Shown here: piece after piece, positions 26,001 to 62,000 of the stretch
How positions within the stretch are numbered: the first letter of the stretch is position 1
Layout of the letters: every line of letters starts with the position of its first letter
Origin: Negaprion brevirostris
Lineage: Eukaryota
DNA: 64,000 bases
Direction of reading: 5' to 3'
Assembly (NCBI GenBank): GCA_030324005.1
Contig: JARDVH010000031.1
Coordinates: forward strand, 42,606,239 to 42,670,238
The notes under the pieces: generated by a model
Seen by the model: only the letters and a program-made list of their open reading frames with translations
What the model was told of the DNA's origin: nothing
The model's database searches: none
Position numbers and translations under genes: made by a program

Positions 26001-29000
26001 AGTTAATTTTACATTTGCTGAAGTAACAGCAACTCTAATTTATTCGATCAACTGACATTGAACTTAAGTGTTTTATCAGAAGGAAGAAATAATTGCAGAT
26101 TCTACAGAAGTGTCTAGGTAATATCTTTTAGTTACAAATGACATAACAATAAAATAAGCATCTTAAAAAGCGATTGGCCTAGATTTTACAGCCAGTCCAG
26201 CAAAGATCAAATTCATTACACTTGCAGTCCGTAGATGTTTCGGAGCTGTTATATGGCGATATATAATCGTAAGAAATCTGATATAGCATTGTGCTCTTCA
26301 CAGGGAATCTGGGATATATGTAAATATGTGCCTCCTCAACCAATCAAATTTAAGAATCCTGACAGAGTCACAGAGTCTAAGCCAGGCTGTATAAATGGAA
26401 TTGTTAATTCAATACCAAATCATACAAATTAGGAGTTGGAGTGGACCACTTGCCCCCCTCTAGCCTGCTCTGCCATTTAATAAGGTCATGGCTGATCTGA
26501 CTGTAATCGCAATTCCACATTCCTGCCTACCCCATTAACTGTTCACCGCTTTTCTTAGCAAGAATCTTTCAACCTTTACCTTAAAAATATTCAAAGGCTC
26601 TGCTTCCACGACTTCTTGAAGAAGAATTGCAAATAATCCTGACCCTCAGAAAAAATGGGTGACTCCTTATTTTTAAACAGTGACCCTTATTTCTAGATGT
26701 TGTCACAAGAGAAAGCATGTTCTCCACATTGAAACATACAAGATCCTGAGGGTTCTTGACAGGATCGATCAAGTCAACTCTTACTCCTCACACAGGGTGA
26801 CTTATTAAATAATATCCCAATTTCCACATTTAGCTGCACATATGCAGGTATTGAAAATTGCTGCTTACTGCTCAATAATAGTGAATGCTGATATTCCTCC
26901 AGCAAAATGTGGGCCAATCAGGACAGCAAAGTAGGACTCTCAGTACGAATTCATGAGGATGAGTTTGATTTCAATCAATTCAAATTAAAAAACTGATGTA
27001 AAATGGCCATTTTCAACAGAGTGGAAAACTTGGATGAACAATGTCAACTAGGACCATCACTGGATCAGTTTCAGTTCCCTTGTCTTTTGCTCATGTGCAG
27101 TCACAAAAAATGTGTGGCACAGAAAGAACATAAGAACATAAGAAATAGGAGCAGGAGTAGGCCCTCTAGCCCCTTGAGCCTGCCCCGCCATTCAATAAGA
27201 TCATGGCTGACCTGAAGTGGCTCAGTCCCACATACCCACCCTCTCCCCATAACCCTTAGATTTCTGATCAATAAGGGAACTATCTACCTGTGACTTATAC
27301 CCCTTTAACAAGATAGCCTCCACTGCTTCAATGGGCAGAGAATTCCAAAGATCCAAAGTTCAGAGCCTTTGAACCCTACTGCATCGTGCAGATAATCAGT
27401 TCCAAATTCCTTTGATTGGTTAGCTCCCAACTTGAGGTTTTCTGAATCACTCTTTTTCATTCTTTCTCTCTATTTCATCTGTCCGACTCTACTCAATACT
27501 CAACTCTGGGTCCTCCTAAGCTAAGGCCTCCCCCCTTCTCCCCCTCCCACTGCTGTGATGAAGATAGAAACAAGACATAGACAAAGGATTGAAACTGGGT
27601 TGACCCTTGTCAGTGCAGTTCAAATACTCATTGAATAAACTCGTTGACACACTCGGAGGGGCAGCGCTGTCGGACGGGCAGCGCTGTCGGACGGGCAGCG
27701 CTGACAGAGGGGCGTGTTGCACTGCTGAAGGGCTGACTTTCAGATAAGATGTTAAACCAGTTGGCTATTTCAAGTAGATGTAAAAGATCACACTTCCCTC
27801 AAATTGGGTGCTGTTGATGATATTATTTCCCTGAAGACTCTATGTCTGTAAATCACATTGTGGACACAGACGGTAACTAGAAATCTAACAATGTTAATTC
27901 ATACAGGGGAAGATCTTTCGACATTGAGGGGTACAAGGCAGGCAGATGCTGAGTGTTCTCCTTCCTCACAGCCCTGCACCGAGGTGATGAACTCATTCCC
28001 CTGTTGGACTTCTGTCTGGAGCAGTGTTAGGACTGAGTGAACTGGGTGACGTGGCCCTAAGCTGACCCACCATTGCCCAGCCACTCACCTGCTGCTTCCT
28101 GCGTGCTTTCTCCTGCTCCTGTTTCTCTCGGGCCTGTCTCCGAGCACGCTCCTCTTCTGCTCTCTTCCTGTTATCTTCTTCACTGGCTTTGGCCATGTTC
28201 TCAAACCTCGACTTCAAACTGCTCGCACCACTGCTGGCTGCAGATAGACAGAGAGGGAGGGAAAGTGACAGTAATGAAGAGAGATAGACAGGTGAATGAG
28301 ACAGAGATAAAGAAGGAGAGAGAGAGAGAGAGAGAGAAAGGAAAAGAGAAAGAAGGGAGAAGGTGAAAGAATGGGAGAGGGAGAGAGAAAATGGAATGAG
28401 AGGGAAATAGTGAGAAGGGAAAAAAGAGTGAGAAATTTGCACATGAAGAGACAGGAGATAAAGGAAGGAGCAGGATCAGAGATAGAGACAAGCCAAGTGA
28501 GTCAGAGACAGGAATGAAGAGAAAAGGATGTGGGGTTAGAGGGAGGAGGAAAGATGGAGGGAGGAGATGAAGAGGCAGACAAAGTCCAAGACAAAGAGAG
28601 GGTAACACAGAGTACATTGTTTATTAAAATCAGCACATAAAACAGTGAGTGCAGCATAAGGATAAAGGTACAAAGAAGCATAGACACCAGGAGAGGGAAG
28701 GCTGGCGCTAGAAACACTGGCACTGGGTGAGAACACTGACAGATTAGAGTTCCCATCCCCTTTATGTTAATTAATGTAGGAGGGGCTTTATCGGGAAAAT
28801 CTTTAGCCCAGGAGCTGACTTATATGGAGAACAAACCCTGCAGAGAGCAGGCCTATGTATCAGGTTCAATCATTGATCAGCATTGGCCTAACTGATTCCA
28901 GCAACAGCAGTGCTGGAATTGGCCTCAGAGCCTCTGGGCTAAGCAGGGATATGGCATGGGGTAAAAACCAGGCACCAGCGTTCCAGCTGCTGATCGATGA

Positions 29001-32000
29001 TAATCCACTCTGATGAGTGAGGGTGTGTCACTGGCACCAAGGGGTGGGTGGGTGAATGGCACTGAAGGATGTGGTCAGTCTGGGTTGTGAGACCACCAAT
29101 TGCTGACACTTCTGGTCTGGGCTCAGGCTTTGAGGAGGTATTGGAGAGTTCGGCTGCTGTTTATGCAACTGAGCTCTGGTAAAGTGCAGAGCATCCAGGA
29201 GAAGAACGTCAGGCGAGAGAAGGAGCGAGAGGGGAGTTGGAAAGTAACAATGTGAATTCTTTTGCCATCTGTTGGCAGAACCAACTTGGCAACATCTCGA
29301 GTTTGACTCAAGGCCCCTGGCATCAATCGAGAATGGCATCACAGACCAACTCACCGGCTTCCACTGGTGTTGTCTTCTGATAGGACGAGGTTGGACTCTC
29401 CATCTCGGTGAAAGAGGCTGCGTTCTGCAATGTGAATTGGTATAACAGTCAACTATCAAACTAACCAGAGGGATAAGGCAAACCCCAGCTTGGCAGGGAT
29501 TGGCAGTATACAGCACACCAACTGTGCACCCACCTCCAGCAGACAATGCCTGGGGTGCAGCAAGAGTGTCCCCATCCACCCCACCTCAAGGACAGATCAA
29601 TATAATTTAATGCACTTAGGTCCCCTGTACAACTCTAACATAAGAACATAAGAAATAGGAGCAGGAGTAGGCCATCTCGCCCTTCGAGCCTGCCCCGCCA
29701 TTCAATAAGATNNNNNNNNNNNNNNNNNNNNNNNNNNNNNNNNNNNNNNNNNNNNNNNNNNNNNNNNNNNNNNNNNNNNNNNNNNNNNNNNNNNNNNNNN
29801 NNNNNNNNNNNAAAGTTGTGTTACATCCCTCCATTGCCACATCTTTGTACTGGTTCTCTAACCCATGGAGGTGCTGCTGAAGTATAAGGATCAGAAGATC
29901 TGCAGACAGAATGAAGAGACCAGCCATACCAACCATACAGATGTGGCTGGAGGTATCAAAAGTTGAGACCAGCAGGGATGTGGTTCCTCGCAGCTGGATT
30001 CAGCCAGTTGAGACCCTCACTTTTTTATTCATTCATTCATGGGTCATGACCATCACTAGCTGATCAGCATTTATTGTCCATTCCTATTTGCCCTTGGAGG
30101 GCAGTTGAGAATCAATTACAATGATGGTGGGTGTCCAGAGTCACATGTAGGTCAGACCAAATAAGGACAGTAGATTTCCTTCCCCTAAAGAATATTAGTG
30201 AACCAGATGGGTTTTTCCGACAATTGACAATGGTTTCATGGTCATCAGTTGATACTTAATTCCAGATTTTTTTTTAATTGAATTCAAATTACACCATCTG
30301 CCATGGCAGGATTCAAACCCAGATCCCCAGAGCATTAGCTGAGTTTCTGGATTGATAGTCAAGAGATAATACCACTTGGCCATCACCTCCGTTTAACTGA
30401 TCAATTAAAGACCGGTTAAAGGGCCTTATCCTATTGCTGCTGGTATTAACTCACCTGGAGCTGGGCCTCTCGCCATGCAGCATGTATGACAGCTGCTATT
30501 CTGGAGGCAGCTTGTCGTATCCAGGAGGGATATTCCTTAATCAGAGGGACTCAGTGCCTGATCAAGGGATTGGACATTGGACAGAGCACTGCCTGCTGGG
30601 AGCCAAACCCCTGCAGTTGCTGTTGACCCACTGCATCGTCTCTCCATGATATCCACTGCACAAAATCCACCCCCTGCCCACATCCCTTATTTTATATCAT
30701 ACACCCACATTCCTTCATCCTTGGTTGTTTCGTGATCCTTGGATTTGGTTATGGGGGAAAGGTGGCTTGCTGTTCCAGCAACAGCCACAGCTTCCGTCAT
30801 TCATAGCTCTGCTAAGCACAAGAGCTGCTACACCTCACTATCTCTGGGTGCTTGATTCCACAGGAAGCCTTGTCATTGCCTGATTGGTAGGTAGTTTGGC
30901 AGGACCATCCTGAAAAGAGGCAGAGCAGGTCTCTTACCTGCTCTTCAGTCAGCTGACAAAACCCCACGACATTGCAACAAGATTCTGCTCTAGGATAGGA
31001 AAAGGCACATGAGAATTGGCGTTAATGGAATGCAAACGGGTGAATAGTTAAGTTTTGAATGTAATACAATGAGTGTTTTGAATAAAATTATTATGAAAAG
31101 GTTTCTTGTTGGTGGCTTTTATTTCAGGATTTGGGCTAACAGAACATTGTGATAGTCTGCAGCAGATGGATTGAAAGGTTAGGAATTGTGGAACAGTTGT
31201 GATGTTAGAATGATATCAAGGAACTGGGCTCCTGAGAATTCATTCCCAGATAGACCTTCTAGAGCGAACAGCCTAAAATACTTCCCTTCAGACTCCTCCC
31301 CCTCTCCACGTGAGTTAATGGCTCAATGTCTGGGGTAGTGGGTGTTCTGTCATAGTAGTTTGATTGTGCAGGATGCAGCAGACTGTGATGAATTTGATGA
31401 ATACTGGAGGGTGCCCAACTGTGGGGTCCAGCCAGCAGAACAGTTAATCAGATGTCAATGGTTTTTCCTCAAATTTCCTTGTTATTGCACAGCTCTCATT
31501 ATTGTTGCACTTTCTGCCCGTGGTTGTATGGTGGAAGGGAGTGATTAGCCAGTTCTACAGCAGGTTTCCCTTGTCACGCAACAACCACCCTCTGGAACTT
31601 TGAGATGGCCCAGAGATGATGGTAGATATGGCTGACTGTCACAGGGTGAAGGCATCATGATAGCAGGCATCCAGCAAGAGGATCATCTCGGCATATATAT
31701 CAACTGAACATTGCTGGAGTGGAAGTCCTTGTGGTTCTGGAACATCTTCCAGTTAACATGTGGACCTCACGTAGACATTGTCTAGTATTGCAGTCTTCAC
31801 AATTGGGAATGTTGACTGCTTGGTGAATCCACATGCTTTCTCTTCCTTCTTCTGTCTCAAGAATGTGAAGACCATGAAATTTCAACTCTTTCTATACAGG
31901 ATCTCTGTCACTTCTCTGATACAGTGATGGACAGCAAACTGTATTTTTTTATGATGTCACCTACTCCTTACTGGAAGAACCCTTGGTGTGGAAATTCAGG

Positions 32001-35000
32001 ATGACAGTGACTTTACTAGTCTTGACAGCAACATCCTTGCCCTGCTGTGCAGCTGCAAGTCAAGTTATGGAAGATGACACTGTTCAGTGACCACCGCCTT
32101 GTTGAAACACAGACACCTCAAACATTGCTCCTTGCTCCTATCAGAAATGGAGAGAAGTATCATATAAAGATTCTTGGTGGGTAGTACCTTCTATTGAGAG
32201 CCATTCTCTTCCCACCTCTGAGCACTGTATTCCCTGTGCTCCATTTCCATTTCATTCTGCAGCACAAGGGGTACTGCAACCATAATCACCAATACTGAAG
32301 CAGGCTTTCTTCTGATAGGCCAAACAACTCCTCCACCACCTTGTCAGAACCTAGCCCCATTTTTTGAAAATCCAAGAGGTTAGTTTCTCCAACAACACAA
32401 CACAGTACTTCCATTAATTCTGAACCAGCAAAAATAAGTCAAAAGCACCTCACCTTGAAGTTAGACGGCTAGTCCTTTAAATAATACTAACAGGCACGTC
32501 CTTTGTGCAACTGAATACTATTTCAGCTGGCGGTGATTGAGAGTTAACTGGACTTTGCAATCCAAAATGCCAGGTGTGCTCCATGTCAGTATTATGTGCT
32601 GTTTGATATCATTATTCATCACTCAGCATACTTCCCCGCACACATGGCCATCTGCATTGGAAGAAGTCAGTACAAATTGCCGACTTTATTCAGTTCAGGA
32701 ATTCCATATTACCAGCTACAGTGGTGCTATGAAAGCCCATTTCACATTCTTTATCCCTGTAACCTGTGCGAGGTGGAAGTGCTTGATGGTGAAACAGAGT
32801 AACAAAAATGTACTTCATTCCCACCACTTAATATGCTTCACCTTGAACTACTAAATTCACTCAAAAATGCATTTTAAAAGTTGTTTTAAAACAACCATTA
32901 ACCAGCTGTTATTCTATATCTGTTCAATTAATACTAGTGAAATTTGGAATTAATACAGATGGCAATTTTGGTGAAATGCAAGTTATTAAAATTTAGAATT
33001 TTTTCAATGAAATCAAGCTGCTAAGATTAGTTTCGATGTGCTATATTTTTAAAAGTGCTTCCAATTAAATAAAATTATTTTGGTCAAAGTTCCCTTATCC
33101 TTTGACAACTTTATCTGAAGTAGTTGCAACTGAACTTCAAAAGGTCAACAAAATGTAATGAACTGTAAAGAGTTGTAAATATTTCCACTTATAAACAATA
33201 TTGACCAGCAGTTGATACATTATTTAGAATCTGTATAGACCCAGAGAAGGTTATTACGTTAATATTTGAAATATATATTTTTAACCAAGCAAACGTACTT
33301 GTTTTAGTCATGATTGAATACTATGCAAGAGAACATATGTCAACTGAACATTTCACTGCTGTCTTGAATGTTATCATGATGTATTTTGCCAGCAGTAGTA
33401 CATCTATCATAGATGGACTTAAAACTTACACAAAATGTACGTTCTCATTAATGATGAGTGGCTAATTCATCTTACCACAGCATAATTAATGTTTTCTCCG
33501 CAGAATAATTTTTCATTGTTTGTTGTGATGCAGTTTCAACATTTTTTGGTACCTTTTCTCTATCTGCATGCCTATCACGATGTCATTTCCAAAAGATCTA
33601 TGTAAGTATTCAACCTGGTTGAATGTTTGCTTGCAGTTTGAATATTCCTTTACAAGGTTGACTTGTAACAGCACTTCAGGACACCAGCATTTGTGATCAA
33701 TCATGTACCAGAACTTTGATAATTGCACATCTTTAAAAAGCATTAAAAATGCACATAATTAATTATTATCCAGTTATTTTACTGTATATATTTTGTTTTT
33801 ATCTATTTTAATCATCTAAAGTATGCAGAAATCTAATGGCTTCTCAGTGGTTTCAAATTCCTTTTTGAATGAAGTTACTGATTTTGCTTGGAACTCAGAC
33901 TCTGTGGCTCTAAAACATATTATCTGTATGCATAAATAATTTAAGAGAAGTTTACAAAAATATTAATGGTATAGTTAACAGTCTTGTGGTGCAATGGGTA
34001 GTGTTCCTACCTCTGAGCCAGAAGCTACAGATTCAAGTAAAACTTGATGGCCATGGAAGCTATGTTCATAATGTATCCAAATAGGTTGGTTGTTAACCTG
34101 TAAATTCTTCTAGGATATGGCAAGTAGTAAAAATAAGTGAGTCTCCTGGTCAGCTATGCTTCCATACTTAATGTAAAATGATGCTCTTCAAACTGTAGCC
34201 TTTTGTAACAGGCTAAAGATCTGTTCCAAGCTACAGAAACAGGCATAAGCATGAGCTTTATCTGCCTTGTTTGTCTCCAGATGTGGGAAGAAAATGAAGA
34301 AGAAGAAGAATTACACAATAGCAACAGTGTAGAAGTGCTAAGGAAGGAAATTGATTTGAATTTTATCCTGAAGGCAGGTAATAGAATTAGCAAATTTCCC
34401 TGCATAGCATTCCCACCTTAGGAGATTTTCATTCTGGGTAATGGTGCTAACTGGAGTCTCACCTTCAGAATGGATGTTTGGGCTCCCAGCCAAGAATGCA
34501 TAATGAAACTTGTCTGAGAGCCCAGCCTTCTATTAGTCTGTTGAAACAGCTGCCAGCAAGGACAAACATTGCTTCATTGAAGCGGTTTCTCTTGTGATCT
34601 GTGATTTATTTCTTAATTGTACAATGTTTAATTACACAAGTTTAAAGGTATCAAGTGCTTATAGTTTCTGCTCTTGATACTTTAAAGAGTTGGTGGATTG
34701 ACACTTTTATAGGATTGTAGTAAAAGCAGTTTTTTGTAAGGAATTTATGAATGAATGACTTTTTATAAAGCTTTTCGCACATGAAATTGTTACTGTAGCA
34801 TTCATTGGTTCCGTGTAGGCTGTATACTTAATAAATGGGTGTTGAAGTGCTGTAGGTTGGCCTGATGAGCCAACTATTTGTGGTGGGTGAAAGACCTTTT
34901 GAACTTGCTTTCGAAAGGTTTCCTCATCCAGACTATAGTTCACAATACCACTGAGGGGATATGAACCAAGATAAATGAAAAGCAGGCTGAACTCCATGCG

Positions 35001-38000
35001 AATTGCAGAGGGCTTGGAGATGCCTATCCTCACAAAGAGTCTGCTAGGTCAGGAGTACAGGGTTTGGGCGTGTAACCTGCACTAGCTCTCACACAACCTT
35101 ATTGCCCACTGACAAGAACTGGGGGTGCCAGGAATGGGGTTGAGAATCGCAGAATCAGTTCCAGGTTGCCATTACTAAAGATCCGCAGTCTCTCTGATTT
35201 TGCGAAAATGTAGCCAATCGAGTTTAATATCTGGGTTTACTGTCAGTGACAGGTAGCTACCCTTTGAAGGTAAAGTTGAAACATGGGGGTGGGAGCCGTG
35301 GGGGAGAAAGATCTCACTCCACGTTGACAGGGTCAATAAAGGAAGATTTCTGGTGGCATTCATGGTGCAATTGGCATGCCAGAACTTGTCATGCTTAAAA
35401 GAGCACAGAATATCATAAAGAATAGGTAGAGATTAGTGAAGCAGAGAGAGTGAAATAAATGTACAGTATTTGTAGTCAATGTATCTCCTTAATTTTTCTT
35501 GTACATGCAACTCATTTTTATTGATTTTTAGATTGCAGATATATTTCAAATAACCTTTTTCATGTTACCTCCAATCTGGATCATCTCCACTATTACAAAT
35601 AAATTGAATAGCATTAATGTTGAATATACTTCTATTATGCTAGGTTTACTGTGAAGTGGAGCTCAAACGAAAAGCACTTGTGCAAGCCAATTCTGATTTA
35701 GCTGCTGCTGCAGAGAAACTTGAGGTTATTAGGAAAAAGCTTGCAGTAAGTATTATGAATTATAATTAACCTCTTGTGAAATATAATTTGCTCTTATAAA
35801 AAGTAACTTATTAAAAGGCTATGCTGTGCATTATCAATTAATTTCTTTATGAATTACTTAAGATTTTGCAGTGTCAGTTTGATCGGGTAAATCTATTTAA
35901 TAGCTACAGTAAGATAAACCCACCAAGGTAACAATAATTCAGTAGCTCTGACAAAGTTTGTTCGTTTATCTTTATATTCATTAAGTATGGTTAGTATGCA
36001 ATGTATACCACAAGGCCATAGGTTAAGTTAGTTACCATGTCATATGCAGAGGCAACTCTGATTGCTGTGGCTAGAACAAGAACCAATTACAACATTGCTG
36101 TGAATTCAGTTCCTGTTAAATGGACCCCGATTCCTCTTGAATGCCACAGTAGCCATTCAATGTTAAAAGCATTGATAAATCATGATTTACTTTCAATTGA
36201 TTTGTTCTGAAATTAAAATTAATTTTAAAAATATTTTCTTCATTTTTAGCATGTATTTCATTTGTATGCATGACACTCATCATGGGAGCTTACAGTAACT
36301 ACTTACAGATTCTGCAGTGGAAAATATTTGTCTATTAACAGCTTCTTGAGAAAATCCTATTATGAATTCCAAATCTTTCCTTAGATCTAGTTTCACTAGA
36401 TATCACTAAATCTATTTATCGTGAAATTATAGAATGATTACAGTTCAGAAAGAGCCTATTTAGTAGATTGAGTCTGTGCCAGCTTTCTGAAAGAGGAATT
36501 TTACTAATCCCACTCCCACTGCCCTTTTCAGGTAGCCCTACAAAATATGTACTTATGGAGATATATATCATGCATAGTCACCATCTCTGGACTAGTAGTG
36601 TAGAGGCTCGGGCTAATGCTGTGGGGAGATGGGTTCAAATTCCGCCATGGCACCTGGTAGAATTTAAATTCAAATGATAGATTTAAAACAATCTGGAATT
36701 GAAAGCAAGTCTCAGGAATGGTGCCATCAAACTATCATTGATTGTTGTTAAAACCCATCTTGTTCACTAATGTCCTTTCGAGGAGGAAGGATGCTATCCT
36801 TCCCAGGTCTGGACTACATGTGACTCCAGACCCACAGCAATGTGAATCTTAACTGCCCTCTGAAATATGCCTGAAAGCCACTCAGTTCAAGGGCAATTAG
36901 GAATAAGTAACAAATGTTGGTTTTGCCAATAATGCACTTAAAATAATCTTATAAGTCTAATATAAAGAAAGAATAAAAAGTATACAAACCTGATGTTGAT
37001 GCACAGTAAAAAAAAGACACATGGCAAGATTTTTAATAATCTACAGTGAAATGTATATTAAAGATCCCATCCCACATGCCAGTGAAGGTGTACAAGTGAC
37101 CTATGAAGGTTGCTTTGTAAATCTACATAATGTACAGCATAAAGGGATTCTACGTGATTTTCTCCAATTCTTTCCTGTTAAGAATCACCTTNNNNNNNNN
37201 NATCACCTTGCTTCTTCTCAGTTGTAGATACATTGTTATGTGGATAATTGAGAATTAAGTTCTTGGAGCTTCATAATTCATTGCGACTATGGGCTGAATT
37301 TTAGTTATGGGGGTCGAGGCCCTATGTTGGTTGTTTTTCTGGGTCCCAACTTCACATTGTGGCAGAACCTGGTGGCCAAAGCGATTTTTATTACGAGCTG
37401 GTCGGTTAAAAGCTAGGGAGCGCACATTCAGTCCAATATAAAAAACAGAAACTGTATGAGGTCGCAAAAATTAAAAGTAATAGAAAAGCTAAAATAATGA
37501 ATATAGAAAACACTGGTAAGAAGAACGTTGGGAAAAGATGAGGGAAAAGAACCTTGTTATTTTAAGTTGTATTTAGATATTTAATTTTGTGGTGTAGATT
37601 GAATAATAAGTATTAAAACTACCCCAAGTTTGCATAGCTTTATTATTCTCATGTTATTGCTTCTCTCAATTTCATAATCTGTGAACTGGCAGCTTTAAAT
37701 ACGCTTTTTTTAAAAATTCTGGCTGAATAATTCTGGAATTTCTCTAGCTCACGATTAAATAGAAAGCAGAATTTTCTACTTTGATGTCATTTCACTGTGG
37801 CAGGTTGAGTATTCCACCCACAACAGTGGTATGACAATGACCCAGGTCAAATTTCTGGATTCAGAGTTATTGACATATTTGAGGCAGGTGTCTCGTTTCT
37901 GCTGGGAGCAAGGGGAAAGAAAACAATGGTTGCCGCAAGCCTCTGATGCATTGAATTAGATTCCAGAGACTGCCATGACTCCTAACTTTGAAAATTTGCA

Positions 38001-41000: not shown

Positions 41001-44000
41001 CAGCGGGAAAACTGTTGAGATTCTCTCTGAGCGGATTAGCATAATTCAGATCACAATCCACCCACACTTAGTTACTTTTTGAAGATTAGGGAGATTCCTG
41101 CTTACAAAGCGGTGTGTGGGACATAAAGATGCCAGTAATGCCAGCCCCTCAGAGATCGGGGCAACTCGTTTTCCAGGCATCCCTCTAGAACCCCACCCCC
41201 CCCCATCCTCCTCACTGGCAAAGACCCAGCNNNNNNNNNNNNNNNNNNNNNNNNNNNNNNNNNNNNNNNNNNNNNNNNNNNNNNNNNNNNNNNNNNNNNN
41301 NNNNNNNNNNNNNNNNNNNNNNNNNNNNNNCCCCCTGCCCCACCCTTCATTGAATAGAATAAAGTGACGTCAAGTGACATTAGATAACTTATATTGTTGT
41401 ACTAAGTACTACATGTATATCATAAAGTTATATGAATCAATTACAACCCTTTTATTCATTTATATTTATTTTCTTTACATTTGTACTTTAAAAAGCTTCC
41501 ACGTTTTTTGGCTTACAAAAGTGTCGATAACAGCATGTAAACCAACAGATCAAAGCATGTCTGATTCAATGTGCATGAGTGTCAGATGACTAAGTTTCTT
41601 ATCGCTCATTGTTGAGTTCAAATAGATTTTGATCCTCTTCAGTGCCGCAAAAGGATTAAACCAATTTTTTTTTGCCCTTGGGCCTCCCTCCCTTCCAGGC
41701 CCCTAGTCTTAAGCCTACTCAGCCTAATGGTTAATCGGCCACCAAATGTACTCCAGACGTGTCTCTACTCATTTACTTCCCATATACTTGAGGTGATACA
41801 AAGCCCTGCTGCCCATGAGTTAACTTGCATCAAATCTTGTTCGCCCATCATCCAGGCACCAGCTGATTACTTTGGCTCTTGGTTAAACAACACCTTTCTT
41901 TTATAATTCTCTCCAAAGACCCATCTCCTCCCCACTTGCTGGTATCAGGCGCCCCCCCCCCCGCCCCAACCACACAATTGCAGCCACCTCCCCATCACCC
42001 TCCCCAAGCCAAAGGCTTTCCCCATTCAGGCCCTTCCTCTCATGCTCCCTCTTCATACTCCTCCATCTTTCAGGCCCCACCTGGCAGTGCTCCCTGGTAG
42101 TGCCATTTTGGTAGGGTCAGTCAGGCAGTGTGGGCACTGCCCAGCCACATGCCTGAACACTGGATGCTCCAATAGCCTCCGAACCCTGCAACGTGGCCAT
42201 CATGCCTGGTTTCCATTTGTGGAGGCAGTAGTGATCCCAGCCAGCTTCCCGTTCTGCAGGTAGGTTGGGGAATACCAGGAGGCAAGTGAATCTGGCAAAA
42301 ACCTGGAAATAAATATTTAAATGATTCAATTATGCTCATTTGGTTCACTCCCTCACTGGACATGAACCAGATTACATCACTGCAGCAGGGGCATCCCAAA
42401 AGGTGTTCTCTCTGGCACAAATAGCGTAATGGTCTCTCTTTCAAGATTCTCCAACCGTTATGCAATTTGCAGCTGATCATGTGGGGCCGGAGAATCACCC
42501 TCAATGTGTTGAATTTTTAAATGCTGTGCATGCGAGGAGTTGTAACTCTCATCAGGCAGGTGCAGAGTTGCAATCATCCAGGTTGCTTACATTTCAGACA
42601 GCTACTAGGATCCCATTGTTTGACTTTTAACCTGTACTATTCAGCAAGCAGCAAAGACACCCACCCAAGATTGATGGAATCCTTTATAGATGCATGTTGT
42701 GTTCTGATGATTGCCTAATAGTAATTTCAACTGGAGGACTGGGAAAGGAAGCTACTGGGGCTTTCCTCCAGGCGTAGACTTGGGGGGAAAAAGGGACTAG
42801 AGCCAGAAGACACCATATAGTTTATTTCAAACTTTGCAATTGTGGTAGCATGAGCAGGACTTTTGTAGTGGACTATCAATTTACAGATTTTGTTTTAATC
42901 TCAAATATTTTTCATTATTGAAAGGAATTAGACATGAGCTTGACTGGATTAACAGTAGCTTTTGAAAGAGCCACATCTGAAAAAGTCCGTTGTCAGGATG
43001 AAGTGAACAGAACCAATAAGACAATTGAACTGGCTAACAGATTAGTAAAAGGCCTAGAGGTGAGATCCCATAATATCTCCTGGTGCAGCAATTTATCTGT
43101 TATACTGTTACCTAAAAATGGTCCTAATAATTNNNNNNNNNNNNNNNNNNNNNNNNNNNNNNNNNNNNNNNNNNNNNNNNNNNNNNNNNNNNNNNNNNNN
43201 NNNNNNNNNNNNNNNNNNNNNNNNNNNNNNNNTACTGTTACCTAAAAATGGTCCTAATAATTTACAACAGCCAAACTGCTTAAAATACTTTAATACCATA
43301 ATGCCTTATTTTTTTTCCACAATTTAATAAAATGTTGACACTATTGTTAAAACCAAAACATTACAGAATAAAATTAACATTTGTCATGATATTGTTTATA
43401 AGATGCAGCCTGCTCAGATTCATTTTCATCCCAAGAAAATAAGCATAATTTAGCAGTTTATTTTTGTATTCTGCTATCTGAACATTTATTGATGTTTTCA
43501 ATTTTTTGTTGTTTTTCATATGTTAGTCAGAGAATGTACGCTGGGCTCAGTCTGTCACACAGTATCATGAACAGGAGAAGACTCTCTGTGGAGATGTTCT
43601 CTTGATGACAGCTTTCATTTCCTATGCTGGTTCTTTCTCAAAGAAGTATCGATGTGAGCTTGTTCAAAACATGTGGATGCCTTACTTGAGAAGCCAAAAG
43701 GTAGATATTTCAGTTGCTAAGAGTAAAACATATTTTCTTACAACTGTCCTTGGAACTATTTTTATCATAAATGTTAATAACATAATCCCAATAGTGTTGG
43801 TGATATGTATAGTGCTTACATTACTTTTCAGATGTTCTAATTGTACAAGGACAGCTTAAAATTTTTGGTCAGGTCTACTGAAGACTTACCTCCAGGAACT
43901 GAAGCATATTAAATTAGTTACAAATTTGTTTTAAATAAAAAGGGTGAGGTTTGCAGTGAAATAGCATAAAAAATACAAATATATTTTAATGACACTACAG

Positions 44001-56000: not shown

Positions 56001-59000
56001 NNNNNNNNNNNNNNNNNNNNNNNNNNNNNNNNNNNNNNNNNNNNNNNNNNNNNNNNNNNNGGCCCAGGGGACTTATCTATTTTCAAACCCTCAAGAATAT
56101 CTAGCACATCCTCCTTATCAACTGCAATACTATCCAGATGAATTTCTTCATCTCCAGCACCTTCCAAGGATCTGCTGCCCAATACTTGGCAAGATTTCAC
56201 AATCTACTGCACATAAATACATCACCCAGATGACCAATGCCATGTTTGCAATCAATCAGGCCTGTTAAAACAAGAGGGGACTTAGATTTGCTGCAATAAT
56301 TCAATTGCCACCAAGTCCAAAGGAATCAGAGATTACAACCATGTGACAAGCAAAGCACTCTCGGATCAACCAGCAATACTTGGCAATCAAAATAATTTCT
56401 AGTTCATTAATGTTCGGCTGCTATGGAACCATTAGGAAATAATTATGCATGTTTGTACAAATGTTCCAGGAAGCTACTCTGATGTCTTCATTCTGCACCA
56501 GTTAAATATCCCACAGGTCTTCAAAGCCCCATGCTGACTATGCATGTGGCTCCTTGCAGATCCTAAAGATGTGGCTAATGGCACCATTGAAAAACCCTTC
56601 CACTGGTGCATGGAAAGGATCCAACAGAAACCATGGCTGGAATTGTTCCAGCAGCACGGAGATAGCTTTGGAGATACAGGGTAAAAATACCTGAAAGAGG
56701 TATGTCAGGCAGGCCCTTCAGCACATTCCCATCTCTATGTGATTTTCATAGAATCACACAGTGCAGAAGAGGCCCTTCGGCCTCTGCACTGAGTCATGAG
56801 AAACACCTGAACTCCCACCTAATCCCATCTAGCAACACTTGGCCCATAGCCTTGAATGTTACAACATGCCACACGCTCATCCAGGTTATTTTTAAAGGAT
56901 GTGAGGCAGCTGCCTCCACAACCCTCCCAGGCAGAGCATTCCAGACTGTCACCACCCTCGAGGTAAAAAAGTTTTTCCTCATCCCACTTAAACCTCCTGC
57001 CCATACCTTGAACTTATGTCCCCTTGTGACTGACCCTTCAACTAAGGGGAACAACTGCTCCCTATCCAATCTGTCCATGCCCCTGATAATCTTCAACACC
57101 ACAATCAGGTCAATATAGTATTGACATGCTGTGCTTGGTTGAGATCAAACCTTGGAGGAGGAGCAATGCCTACTCCAATCAGCTTGGATCATGTAGATCA
57201 AGTCCAAGACAAGAGGTGAGAGTCCTGTCTTGTCAGCTTGGATCAGGAATGTCTCAACTTGTTGAGACTCTAAATTGGGCTTGATTTGATTGAATTGGAA
57301 TAAAAACAAAAAAAACCAAAAACAACCCAAGCCAATTGAACCTCTCTTCATAACTTAAATGTTCCATCCCAAACAGCATCTTAGTGAATCTCCACTGCAC
57401 CCCACATTTAAGAAACTGAAGCTACAGATTGCCAACCCACAGGTGAAGATCTTGAAGCAGATTGACTTTGCAGTGACAAAGAACAAAACTGAAAAGTACC
57501 ATGTTGGGCGGACCGTGAGACATGCACGATATCAATTGCTATCGAACAACTACTACCTTTTCCGCAGCCTTTCCAATACATTGAGGGACAGCAGCAAGGA
57601 AACAATGGGAGCTCTGGAAGTGACAGTTTGAAAGGAACAGAACAGCTTTGAGCTTGCATGGAAAAGGGTTATACCTTTTTATATACCATTGGGGCTATAG
57701 CTGACATTCTGGCACAACAAGGCGTTGAGGAGATATTGGTACATTGAATGAGATTCTGGAGGCCCTCAATAATTGCTTCAGCCCTAGGAAGAATCTAGGT
57801 AAATATTTAGGTTCAGCCAGAGAAGCCAAAGATCATGTTCCTTTTTCTAGTTGGCTAGCTCCTGCAGTTAGGAAGCCCTAAAGTATAAGGCGACTGCATC
57901 ATAGCATACTCAATAATGCACAGCTGAGTTTATTAAATCAAGAGAGGATTTGAACTTAGAGAAGTCTAAACAGATTGGTGAGGCAGGTGAAGTTGTGATG
58001 GCTGAATTGGAGTGTAATCTGGGGCGATGTCAAGGCTCAGGAGGGGCCAATCCAGTACGTAGGCCCAAAGTTAGGACGCCCACCCTCCAAAGCCACTGAA
58101 GGACAGGGAGATCTATTGCATTTACGCTAAGGTGCTCCAGATGCAGCATCAACAGACAACGCCACAAAGACTGCCCAGATAGGAGAGCTGAATATTTTCT
58201 CTATGGCAGGACCAGGATATTTTAAACAGTTTTGTAGATCAATTTGAGGAAAGAAAACTAGAACAGGCAAAAATATCCTTTCTAGAACAGAATTCAAACT
58301 GGATATCGAGGTAAGGTTCTCCCTCTTATCAGACAAATTGGAAAGGCTTCAACATTGGCTTGAGGAACTAAAAATCTAGCCATTCCTTTGACAATACCTT
58401 TTAAACCCATGACCTCTACCACCTAGAAGGACAACGGCAGCAGATGCATGGGAATACGAACATTTGCAAGCGTCCCATCAAGTTACACAGCATCCTAACG
58501 AGGAACTATATCATCATTCCTTCATTGTGACTGGGTCAAAATCCTGGAACTCCCTTGCTAATAGCACTGTGAGTGTTCCTACAACACATTGGCTGCAATA
58601 GTTTTAGAAGGCAGCCCACCACTACCTTCCCAAGGGCAATTAAAGATAGGCAATAAATGCTGGCCAAGCTAGCAATACCCACACCTCATGAACAATTAAT
58701 TTTTAAAAACCTGTAAGCATGGATTTTAAAGTGAAGGGTCAGTTCATTACAACCCTCAGACATGAAGGTAAAGAAATTAACAAAACTCTTTATATCTTAC
58801 AGAATGATCAAATTTCTCTGATTTATACATTAGCATTTTTAAGACTTGGTCTATTACACACATTCAATGTGATATCGTTAGTGGACACCAAAGCAGTTCT
58901 CAAAGCTGACATTCCAAAGTTGGTTCGAGGGACTGACAGATTTTGAAATAGCACCTGAAGTTCATTCATTACACTGTGAGTCATACTTTTTTGTAGAAAC

Positions 59001-62000
59001 CCCATCCACTGGACCACCGGAGGAGTTGGTAGATTTCTCACTTTTCTTAGATGAGCTCGAAGGTGCGGAAATAAAAGACACTGAAAAAGATAGTGACCAA
59101 AGGAGCTTCTAGACCTGTTGGCTCTTTTCTGACAGACTTCATCAGAATGAAGCCGTTGCAGAAACAGGTGAAGAGTTGGAGGAAAAGGTCCATGATCTTG
59201 TCATACTCTTTGACTTCACTATCAATGTCACTGAAATCTCTGTTGTCTTTTTGAAGGAGTTTCATCCTACCATTGAAGAAGGTACTAAAGAGCTGATTTC
59301 ATCTACTTGTCTCATTGAATCCACCAGTGATATGCACCAACAATTGTTGGCTGACAACAGCAAGCTATGATGTGGAGATGCTGGCTTTGGACTGTGTTAA
59401 ACACAGTAAGAAGTCTCACAACACCAGGTTAAAGTCCAACAAGTTTATTTNNNNNNNNNNNNNNNNNNNNNNNNNNNNNNNNNNNNNNNNNNNNNNNNNN
59501 NNNNNNNNNNNNNNNNNNNNNNNNNNNNNNNNNNNNNNNNNNNNNNNNNNAACCTATGCTTAATGCTATCTCCACTCACATTGTCTGCACCTTTTAAGAA
59601 TTGATTAGCGGCAAAGACTCGCATTGTAATCAGTATTCTATAATCTGTGTGCACCTTTATATGCTCTGTTTGTGACCAGAACTCTCCACTCACCTGACGA
59701 AGGGGCAAACCCCGAAAGTGAATGGGTTTACTATCAAATAAACTTGTTGGACTTTTTCCTGGTGTTGTGAGACTTCTAACAGCAAGCTATCCAGGGGTAA
59801 AAAGAGATACTTGATTACAAGTTGGATCAAACCAATAGAGGATGTTCAGAGCTTATTAATTTGCATGAATGTAAGCTACAGCCCACATCTGAATCTCACC
59901 AGCAAGTCTTGGATATATTTAGATAACTTTTCCATGAAGAAATAGGAACCCAAACTACAGAGCTTCTACACTTGAAGAGTATTGAGGAATACTATACAGG
60001 AATTTCACCGAGATCCCGGTTTGGCAATTTATTCAATTGTTGAAGATGGTACATCTCTGTTTCTCATGCCGATACCACAATCCCTTTGCCTGTAGCAATG
60101 CCTTACACTGAAGCAAGTGTGAATATTATGCCACTGCTGTAGAAAATACACATCTTACCCTTGTGGTAGGAAAGTCATCTTTTCTTCATATCCTGCAATG
60201 TCTTCAATATTTCTTTGAGCCTCTTGTCATTGAGACATAGAGGTTTATAGCACTGAAACAGGCCCTTCGGCCCAACTTGTCTATGCGGCCCAGTTTTACC
60301 ATTAAGCTAGTCCCAATTGCCTGTGAATGGCCCATATCCCTCCAGCTTTTAAAAAGACAAAATTGTACCCGCCTCTACCACTACCTCTGGCAGCTCATTC
60401 CAGACAGGCACTACCCTCTGTGTAAAAAAATTTCCCCTCTGCACCCTTTTGTATCTCTCCCCAAACTCATGCCCTCTAGTTTTAGCCTCCCTACCTTTTA
60501 GGAAAAGGTGTTGACTATCTACCTCATCTATGCCCCTCATTATTTTNNNNNNNNNNTTTTTAAAAGACAAAATTGTACCCACCTCTACTACTGCCTCTGG
60601 CTGCTCATTCCAGACACTCACCACCCTCCGTGTGAAAAAATTGCCGTTCTGGACCCTTTTGTATCTCTCCCCTGTCACCTTAAACCTATGCCCTTTAGTT
60701 TTAGACTCTCCTACCTTTGGGAAAAGATATTGACTATTCAGCTGATCTATGCCTCTCATTAGTTTATAGACCTCTATAAGATCACCCCTTAGCCTTCAAT
60801 GCTCCGGAGAAAAAGGTCCCAGTCTATTCAGCCTCTCCTTATAACTCAAACCATCAAGTCTCAGTAGCATCTTAGTAAATCTTTTCCACACTCTTTATAG
60901 TTTAATAATATTCTTTCTATAATAGGGTTTCCAGAATTGTAGACAATGTTCCAAGTGTGGCCTTACCCAATGACTTGTACAATTTCAACAAGATGTCCCA
61001 ACTTCTGTATTCAATGTTCTGACCAATAAATCCAAGCATGCCAAATGCCATCTTCACCGCCCTGTCCACCTTTGACTCTACTTTCAAGGAACTATGAACC
61101 TGTACCCCTAGATCCCTTTGTTCTTTGACTCTTCCCAATGCCCAACCATTAGAACTTCTCTGGTTCGATCTATCAAAATGGATCACCTTGCATTTACCTA
61201 AATTAAACTCCATCTGCCATTCTTCTGCCCACTGACTCAATTGATCAAGATCTCATTGTAATCTTTTTCACTGTCCACTATGCCACCAATAGTTTTCTGC
61301 AAACTTGCTAACTGTGCCTTCTAACTTCTCATCCAGATCATTAATATAACTGACAAATAGAAGTGGAGCTAGCACCAATCCCTGAGGCACATTGCAGGTC
61401 ACAGGCCTCGAGTTTGAAAAACAATACAACCACCTTCTGTCTTCTGCCATCAAGCCAATTTTGTATCCAACTGGCTATCTCACCCTGGATCCCATGAGAT
61501 TTAACTTTATGCAACAACTTACCATACGAACCTTGTCTGTCAGATCAATTCAGATCTCAGGTATTGAATACTTTTGTTGCCACACTATTGATGAATGATA
61601 CAGTTGTGAAATTCATCAGTGAAGTTGAAGGTGCTTCATTTTCTCAATCCATTTCCCAGTGTGCAATGTAGAAGAAGATTACAGAGAGAATGTCAGCTTA
61701 TTTGCTTCCTTTTCAAGGTGGTGTGTCCATCCATGTGCTGAAGTTTTCTTCTTAAAACAGTTTTTCATTGAATGGGCTTCACAGCCTTTACAGTCCAATC
61801 AATGTGAGGGCTATATGCCAGACATCAGAAGCTGATATCCAATTCCATCAATGTGTTTGTCTTTCAAGGCAAAGGTAAAGGAATGTACAAGTCCTGCATA
61901 TTCTCCAAGAGAGCTAAAAATACTGTTGAGATTGAAGCCTTTGATGCCAGTGACTGGGAGGAAGGGAGAGAGGGGGGAGTAGGAGTTGGAAAGAAACGGT

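Follow-up and report, generated by a model that had tools for sequence, protein, structure and literature searches.

In the Negaprion brevirostris assembly, two exons of HCLS1 are stranded antisense inside an intron of a dynein heavy-chain gene, and we conclude with high confidence that the island carrying them is the native, single copy of this part of HCLS1, misjoined into a dynein-intron contig via a 32-nt repeat. Misassembly is favoured because the exons are single-copy, the native HCLS1 locus holds an N run, the same intron in relatives is without the island, and the ends of the island lie in repeats. In all likelihood, the stranded exons are not a real biological feature. A preliminary description of the window (the whole 64,000-nt stretch of DNA that was analysed) had given first place to the recent capture of a gene fragment, which an antisense transcript might use, and had kept a misplaced contig as its fallback; the single copy and the native gap leave the former reading unsupported, and it is the fallback that is favoured by the native gap and by an island-free dynein intron in two of the four sequencing runs compared. 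In this report, we describe the exons and their host, the locus from which they are missing, and the joins that appear to have brought the two together.

HCLS1 exons antisense within a dynein intron

Both exons lie on the minus strand (29424-29355 and 28237-28089), with boundaries of the form cag...gtgagt in the letters of the window; their positions, sizes and canonical sites are thus as previously described, and splicing the 70-nt exon in frame to the 149-nt exon reproduces the 73-residue, stop-free peptide reported with them. Residue numbering follows P0002, the HCLS1 of the catshark Scyliorhinus canicula. The features of the pair are as follows:

29355..29424, minus strand: HCLS1 70-nt exon, P0002 residues 245-267, 22/23 identical to catshark HCLS1
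28089..28237, minus strand: HCLS1 149-nt helical-region exon, P0002 residues 268-317, 45/49 identical
28238..29354, minus strand: HCLS1 intron between both exons, 1,117 nt, its 3' part CT-rich

The 149-nt exon matched 56 cortactin-family proteins at E<=1e-5 among 483 candidates, with catshark HCLS1 the best at 92%, and the likeness of the exon pair is therefore not due to chance. Cortactin (CTTN), at C73:106.43 Mb in the same genome, has a homologous helical exon, also of 149 nt, which it retains at its own locus; however, this exon is identical to that of the island at only 32 of 49 residues, compared with 45 of 49 for catshark HCLS1. Both stranded exons belong to HCLS1, in agreement with the preference expressed earlier, and the 149-nt exon is closer to it than to cortactin. 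The cortactin locus, in which N runs occur, yielded no equivalent of the 70-nt exon. Neither exon on its own matched any Pfam family, HS1_rep (PF02218) included, as expected from their position at the end of, or beyond, the cortactin repeats. The order and phase of the two exons are consistent with the native HCLS1 model, but the island holds residues 245-317 only, being without the repeats, the SH3 domain and the start; a comparison with the HCLS1 protein likewise found no further HCLS1 exon within the window, confirming the earlier statement to that effect.

The host of the island is a single large intron:

24888..35643, plus strand: host intron, in the gene for an outer-arm dynein heavy chain of the beta type (likely DNAH11)

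That a dynein intron is the host was borne out by dynein Pfam matches and by the two PF12777 microtubule-stalk exons that flank it, with the island antisense between them. Its closer assignment to DNAH11 is tentative. A CDCA7-family gene (PF10497) lies on the minus strand ~99 kb downstream of the window, and the host identity is consistent with this neighbour, given the synteny of CDCA7L and DNAH11; the best PDB matches of the host were DNAH9 and DNAH17, and DNAH11 was absent from the best 60 of 76.

The native HCLS1 locus and the contents of its gaps

A DNA query with the whole island was dominated by CT-rich repeats, and two narrower exon-region queries were therefore used. Searches of the assembly with the exon-1 and exon-2 regions returned the window only (1/1 and 1/13 candidates, respectively), and a protein search with exon 2 matched the window, the cortactin gene on C73 and, weakly, one other place; the island is thus found once. 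The PF02218 profile identified two loci in the assembly, C130:31.81 Mb and the cortactin locus on C73. The former (C130:31.80-31.83 Mb) is HCLS1, with exon-by-exon identities of 67-100% to P0002, and it covers catshark HCLS1 save for residues 29-52 and 245-408. Both missing stretches fall at N runs on C130, one of 2,746 N (31802947-31805692) and one of 3,420 N (31821345-31824764), the latter read as an assembly gap, which masked letters would resemble. The last native exon before the 3,420 N, ending at C130:31819199, closes on residue 244 in phase 0, and the 70-nt exon of the island opens in the same phase on residue 245, so that the island supplies residues 245-317, collinear and in phase, of the native hole at 245-408. 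A native HCLS1 model without these exons, which the preliminary description had named as a sign of misassembly, is what the locus contains, with an N run where they belong.

The flanks of this gap are repetitive. On the left, the native sequence breaks off within a LINE; a LINE 3' end of matching orientation opens the island and likely belongs to that element. On the right, the native sequence resumes in a 54-nt tandem repeat. Such elements are typical stops for short-read contigs. When the island was compared with the flanks of the native gap, repeats alone matched, and no overlap in unique sequence was found. By two reference copies, the part of the LINE remaining in the gap amounts to 584 or 812 nt, and the proline-rich exon of HCLS1 was not found in the assembly (three weak matches, E 0.004-0.1). 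Because the gap would have to hold this LINE, the island, at least 306 more letters and the proline-rich exon, its length would be underestimated by at least 1 kb. The near match between the 3,383 nt of the island and the 3,420 N of the gap is weak and was not counted as evidence, since the gap must hold more.

The other native gap provides a replicate. The exon for HCLS1 residues 29-52 (74 nt) was located at C106:66123432-66123505, on a third scaffold, in a ~540-nt piece directly after a 100-N run. A LINE end follows the piece, and 77 nt of it match, at 92%, the LINE end just ahead of the N run. Thus, for both exon-bearing gaps of HCLS1, part of the contents is found elsewhere, each time beside a 100-N run and a repeat, and the HCLS1 model of the assembly is consequently truncated. 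In the window and the other regions examined, exact overlaps of 26-31 nt were present across 3 of the 15 100-N runs and across none of the six 10-N runs, as expected if the 100-N runs are placeholders between contigs whose overlap is about the length of one k-mer. This overlap size is that of the 32-nt join in the dynein intron.

Extent of the island and its joins in independent sequencing runs

Positions 25500-31500 of the window were compared with 4 of 23 sequencing runs (X1, X2, X5 and X6), the longest matching contigs being listed for each. The breakpoints of the X2 and X5 contigs place the island at ~26329-29711, wider than the 27350-29636 proposed at first, and delimit the following features:

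26329..29711, minus strand: displaced HCLS1 piece, the whole island, 3,383 nt, two exons plus intron DNA, from X2/X5 contigs
26329..26360, no strand: 32-nt stretch common to the dynein intron and the HCLS1 piece, likely the chimeric join, inside an old dispersed repeat
27127..27355, minus strand: CR1-like 3' fragment within the island, no boundary
29637..29711, minus strand: CR1-like LINE 3' end, located at the 5' end of the island
29712..29811, no strand: 100-N run at the end of the island, likely a scaffold placeholder for ~312 nt of dynein intron

In X5 (organism C), a single contig of 2,938 nt comprises 25500-26360, then 312 other letters, and then 29812-30096; X2 (organism B) has a single contig of 1,771 nt with the same structure, in which those 312 letters link 26360 and 29812. 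The dynein intron is therefore bridged without the island in two of the four runs, from two related organisms and two studies; these bridging contigs come from organisms 2-3% diverged from the assembled species and would therefore be compatible with an insertion private to its lineage. X2 and X5 also hold the island DNA, on separate contigs. Those starting at 26329 carry 306 (X2) and 320 (X5) off-window letters, and a 2,284-nt contig of X5 contains both exons (27701-29636) followed by 335 letters unlike the window. In addition, a contig of X6 extends for 174 letters past 29812 into non-window sequence. Among the contigs listed, none spans a junction between island and dynein in any of the four runs, the absence of such spanning sequence being the second sign of misassembly named in the preliminary description; in X1, none of those listed covers 26158-26733, and none crosses or contradicts the join at 26329-26360.

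The X1 run matches the window most closely, with 0 differences over the eight contigs listed, on the island and its flanks alike, and X5 differs from the window by 2-3%, again on both. The depth of X1 was 6.5 on the island (five contigs, 5.3-8.0) and 7.1 on the flanks (three contigs, 5.8-8.2), contig depth being a poor measure of copy number in a run just ~6-8 deep. The depth is thus undoubled, and a collapsed duplicate would give ~2x.

The lower join consists of the 32-nt overlap between dynein-type and island-type contigs at 26329-26360. This 32-mer occurs exactly once in the assembly, and copies with two mismatches, on C84 and C132, form part of an old dispersed repeat. The LINE fragment at 27127-27355, where contigs of X2 and X5 break at 27127 and restart at 27323-27326, was considered as the end of the island and rejected, since the contigs of both runs put the edge at 26329. 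The island had also been described as GC-rich, and it is so (46-48%) relative to the DNA nearer the dynein exons (32-35%); however, its edges are unmarked in this respect, the adjoining intron DNA being at 43% and 45%, and we discarded GC content as a guide to where it ends.

Origin of the join and alternative readings

The features of a misassembly are present together: a gap at the native locus, a host intron that is continuous in two of four runs, and junctions that lie at a repeat and an N run. We propose a model whereby the contig walk in the short-read graph would have crossed out of the dynein intron at 26360, by way of the repeat word common to both introns, and continued in reverse for 3.35 kb through the HCLS1 intron and both exons, until the young LINE at 29711 halted it. 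The scaffolder would then have attached the true next dynein contig, at 29812, with 100 N in place of ~312 nt, and the HCLS1 gene would have been left with a gap where the piece belongs. Similar behaviour is reported in PMC7757076, in which a scaffolder puts 100-bp gaps at joins and gap-fillers extend one end only. Under this model, the animal would splice both exons as a normal part of HCLS1, and its dynein intron would be ~3.1 kb shorter than assembled.

A real insertion fares best among the alternatives, and we regard it as improbable. In this reading, either read-through from a CR1-like LINE 3' end or ectopic repair at the 32-nt repeat would have placed a very recent 3.4-kb copy of HCLS1 in the dynein intron, with the near-identical copies collapsed in the assembly and a gap left at the native locus. 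The position of the island directly downstream of a LINE 3' end would fit such a copy, a collapsed two-copy segment would likewise leave a native gap, and the relatives without the island are other organisms; however, the X1 depth is not doubled, a spliceable intron is retained, and the letters at 26329 show neither poly(A) nor a LINE tail. CR1-type elements are considered to require a 3' tail of their own. Moreover, the second HCLS1 piece, on another scaffold and with the same gap-side pattern, would demand two independent recent captures from one gene. A second, donor copy of the island was not found in searches of the assembly by DNA or protein, and a target-site duplication is unreadable beside the N run. 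Such a copy would be private to the lineage or polymorphic, with two spliceable exons, and would derive from a gene that sheds fragments repeatedly, the one on C106 being another. If the recent copy were real, it would represent an intron-retaining exon capture beside a CR1-like element in a shark; in the literature, we found no report of such a capture in a shark, nor of displacement of HCLS1 or cortactin exons there.

Less probable still is that the segment has truly moved, cut and pasted from HCLS1, leaving the HCLS1 of this lineage without 73 in-frame residues. The single copy and single depth fit such a move, and the loss of 219 nt keeps the frame, but the native locus presents an N run bounded by repeats and no clean deletion junction, and the assembly as a whole is without the proline-rich exon too. 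Moreover, the frame would shift if the other displaced exon, of 74 nt, were lost, and the stranded pair is undamaged, sharing 92-96% of its residues with HCLS1 of the catshark. Least credible of all is that the island stems from a third paralogue of the cortactin family, as a relic, or from a contaminating species, for which nothing speaks beyond its isolation: it supplies what the native HCLS1 model is missing, PF02218 finds just two loci, and the agreement of X1 and the 2-3% divergence of X5 are shared by island and flanks.

We therefore return to the chimeric join as by far the best explanation. As biology, the exons are ordinary HCLS1 exons whose location most likely has no significance, and the use of the finding is practical. 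In this assembly, sequence that belongs in gaps seems to end up on other scaffolds beside 100-N runs, and other finds of stranded exons in it call for the same checks: whether the native locus has a gap, whether 100 N adjoin the exons, and whether the join lies in a repeat.

Two known situations resemble the island. LINE 3' transduction, or the capture of a gene fragment by this route, also leaves a gene fragment downstream of a LINE 3' end; however, the island lacks the second copy, the doubled depth and the terminal tail, and it keeps its intron. Another likeness is found with exon 3 of SHE in rheMac2: as reported in PMC4214606, the internal exon was assigned to the scaffold of another, wrong chromosome, and the native gene model was incomplete without it. 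In that case, a whole scaffold was misassigned, whereas here a piece of HCLS1 has most probably been fused into a dynein-intron contig, with a repeat at one of its joins and an N run at the opposite one.

Gaps and repeats in the window

A gap of 100 Ns in the window has an exact flanking repeat:
window 43103-43262: 100-N run (43133-43232) and its flank repeat

Because the 30 nt preceding this run recur exactly directly behind it, the Ns probably just hold the place between two contigs that overlap. On the plus strand, window 58860-59380 carries acidic open frames that look coding, for which no Pfam match was found; 20 further copies of this sequence exist at 66-76% identity, which makes it an old dispersed repeat. 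A LINE reverse-transcriptase fragment (PF00078; 264 residues without a stop) lies at 89-880 on the minus strand. The dynein stalk exon at 35644-35745 has a leucine at the position where outer-arm dynein heavy chains presumably carry a proline motif.

A displaced exon, and a possibly displaced one, elsewhere in the assembly

A second displaced HCLS1 exon lies on another scaffold (C106) of the same assembly (G000):
G000:C106:66123432-66123505 (L058:1504-1577): HCLS1 exon, 74 nt, residues 29-52

Next to it are a run of 100 Ns and a LINE end that is duplicated; natively it belongs in the stretch of 2,746 Ns on C130, the scaffold of the native HCLS1 locus. A search of the cortactin locus (G000:C73:106426480-106430170; L034) for a counterpart of the 70-nt exon found none; the locus has stretches of 570 and 867 Ns there, and the counterpart may be displaced as well, or unassembled.

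Repeat exons of native HCLS1

The native locus holds two near-identical repeat exons, and between them lies a gap of 100 Ns whose flanks overlap by 31 nt:
G000:C130:31811646-31811756 (L026): HCLS1 repeat exon
G000:C130:31816756-31816866 (L027): HCLS1 repeat exon

At the corresponding place, the catshark protein (P0002) has one repeat exon, whereas the ray protein (P0004), like the native locus, has two.
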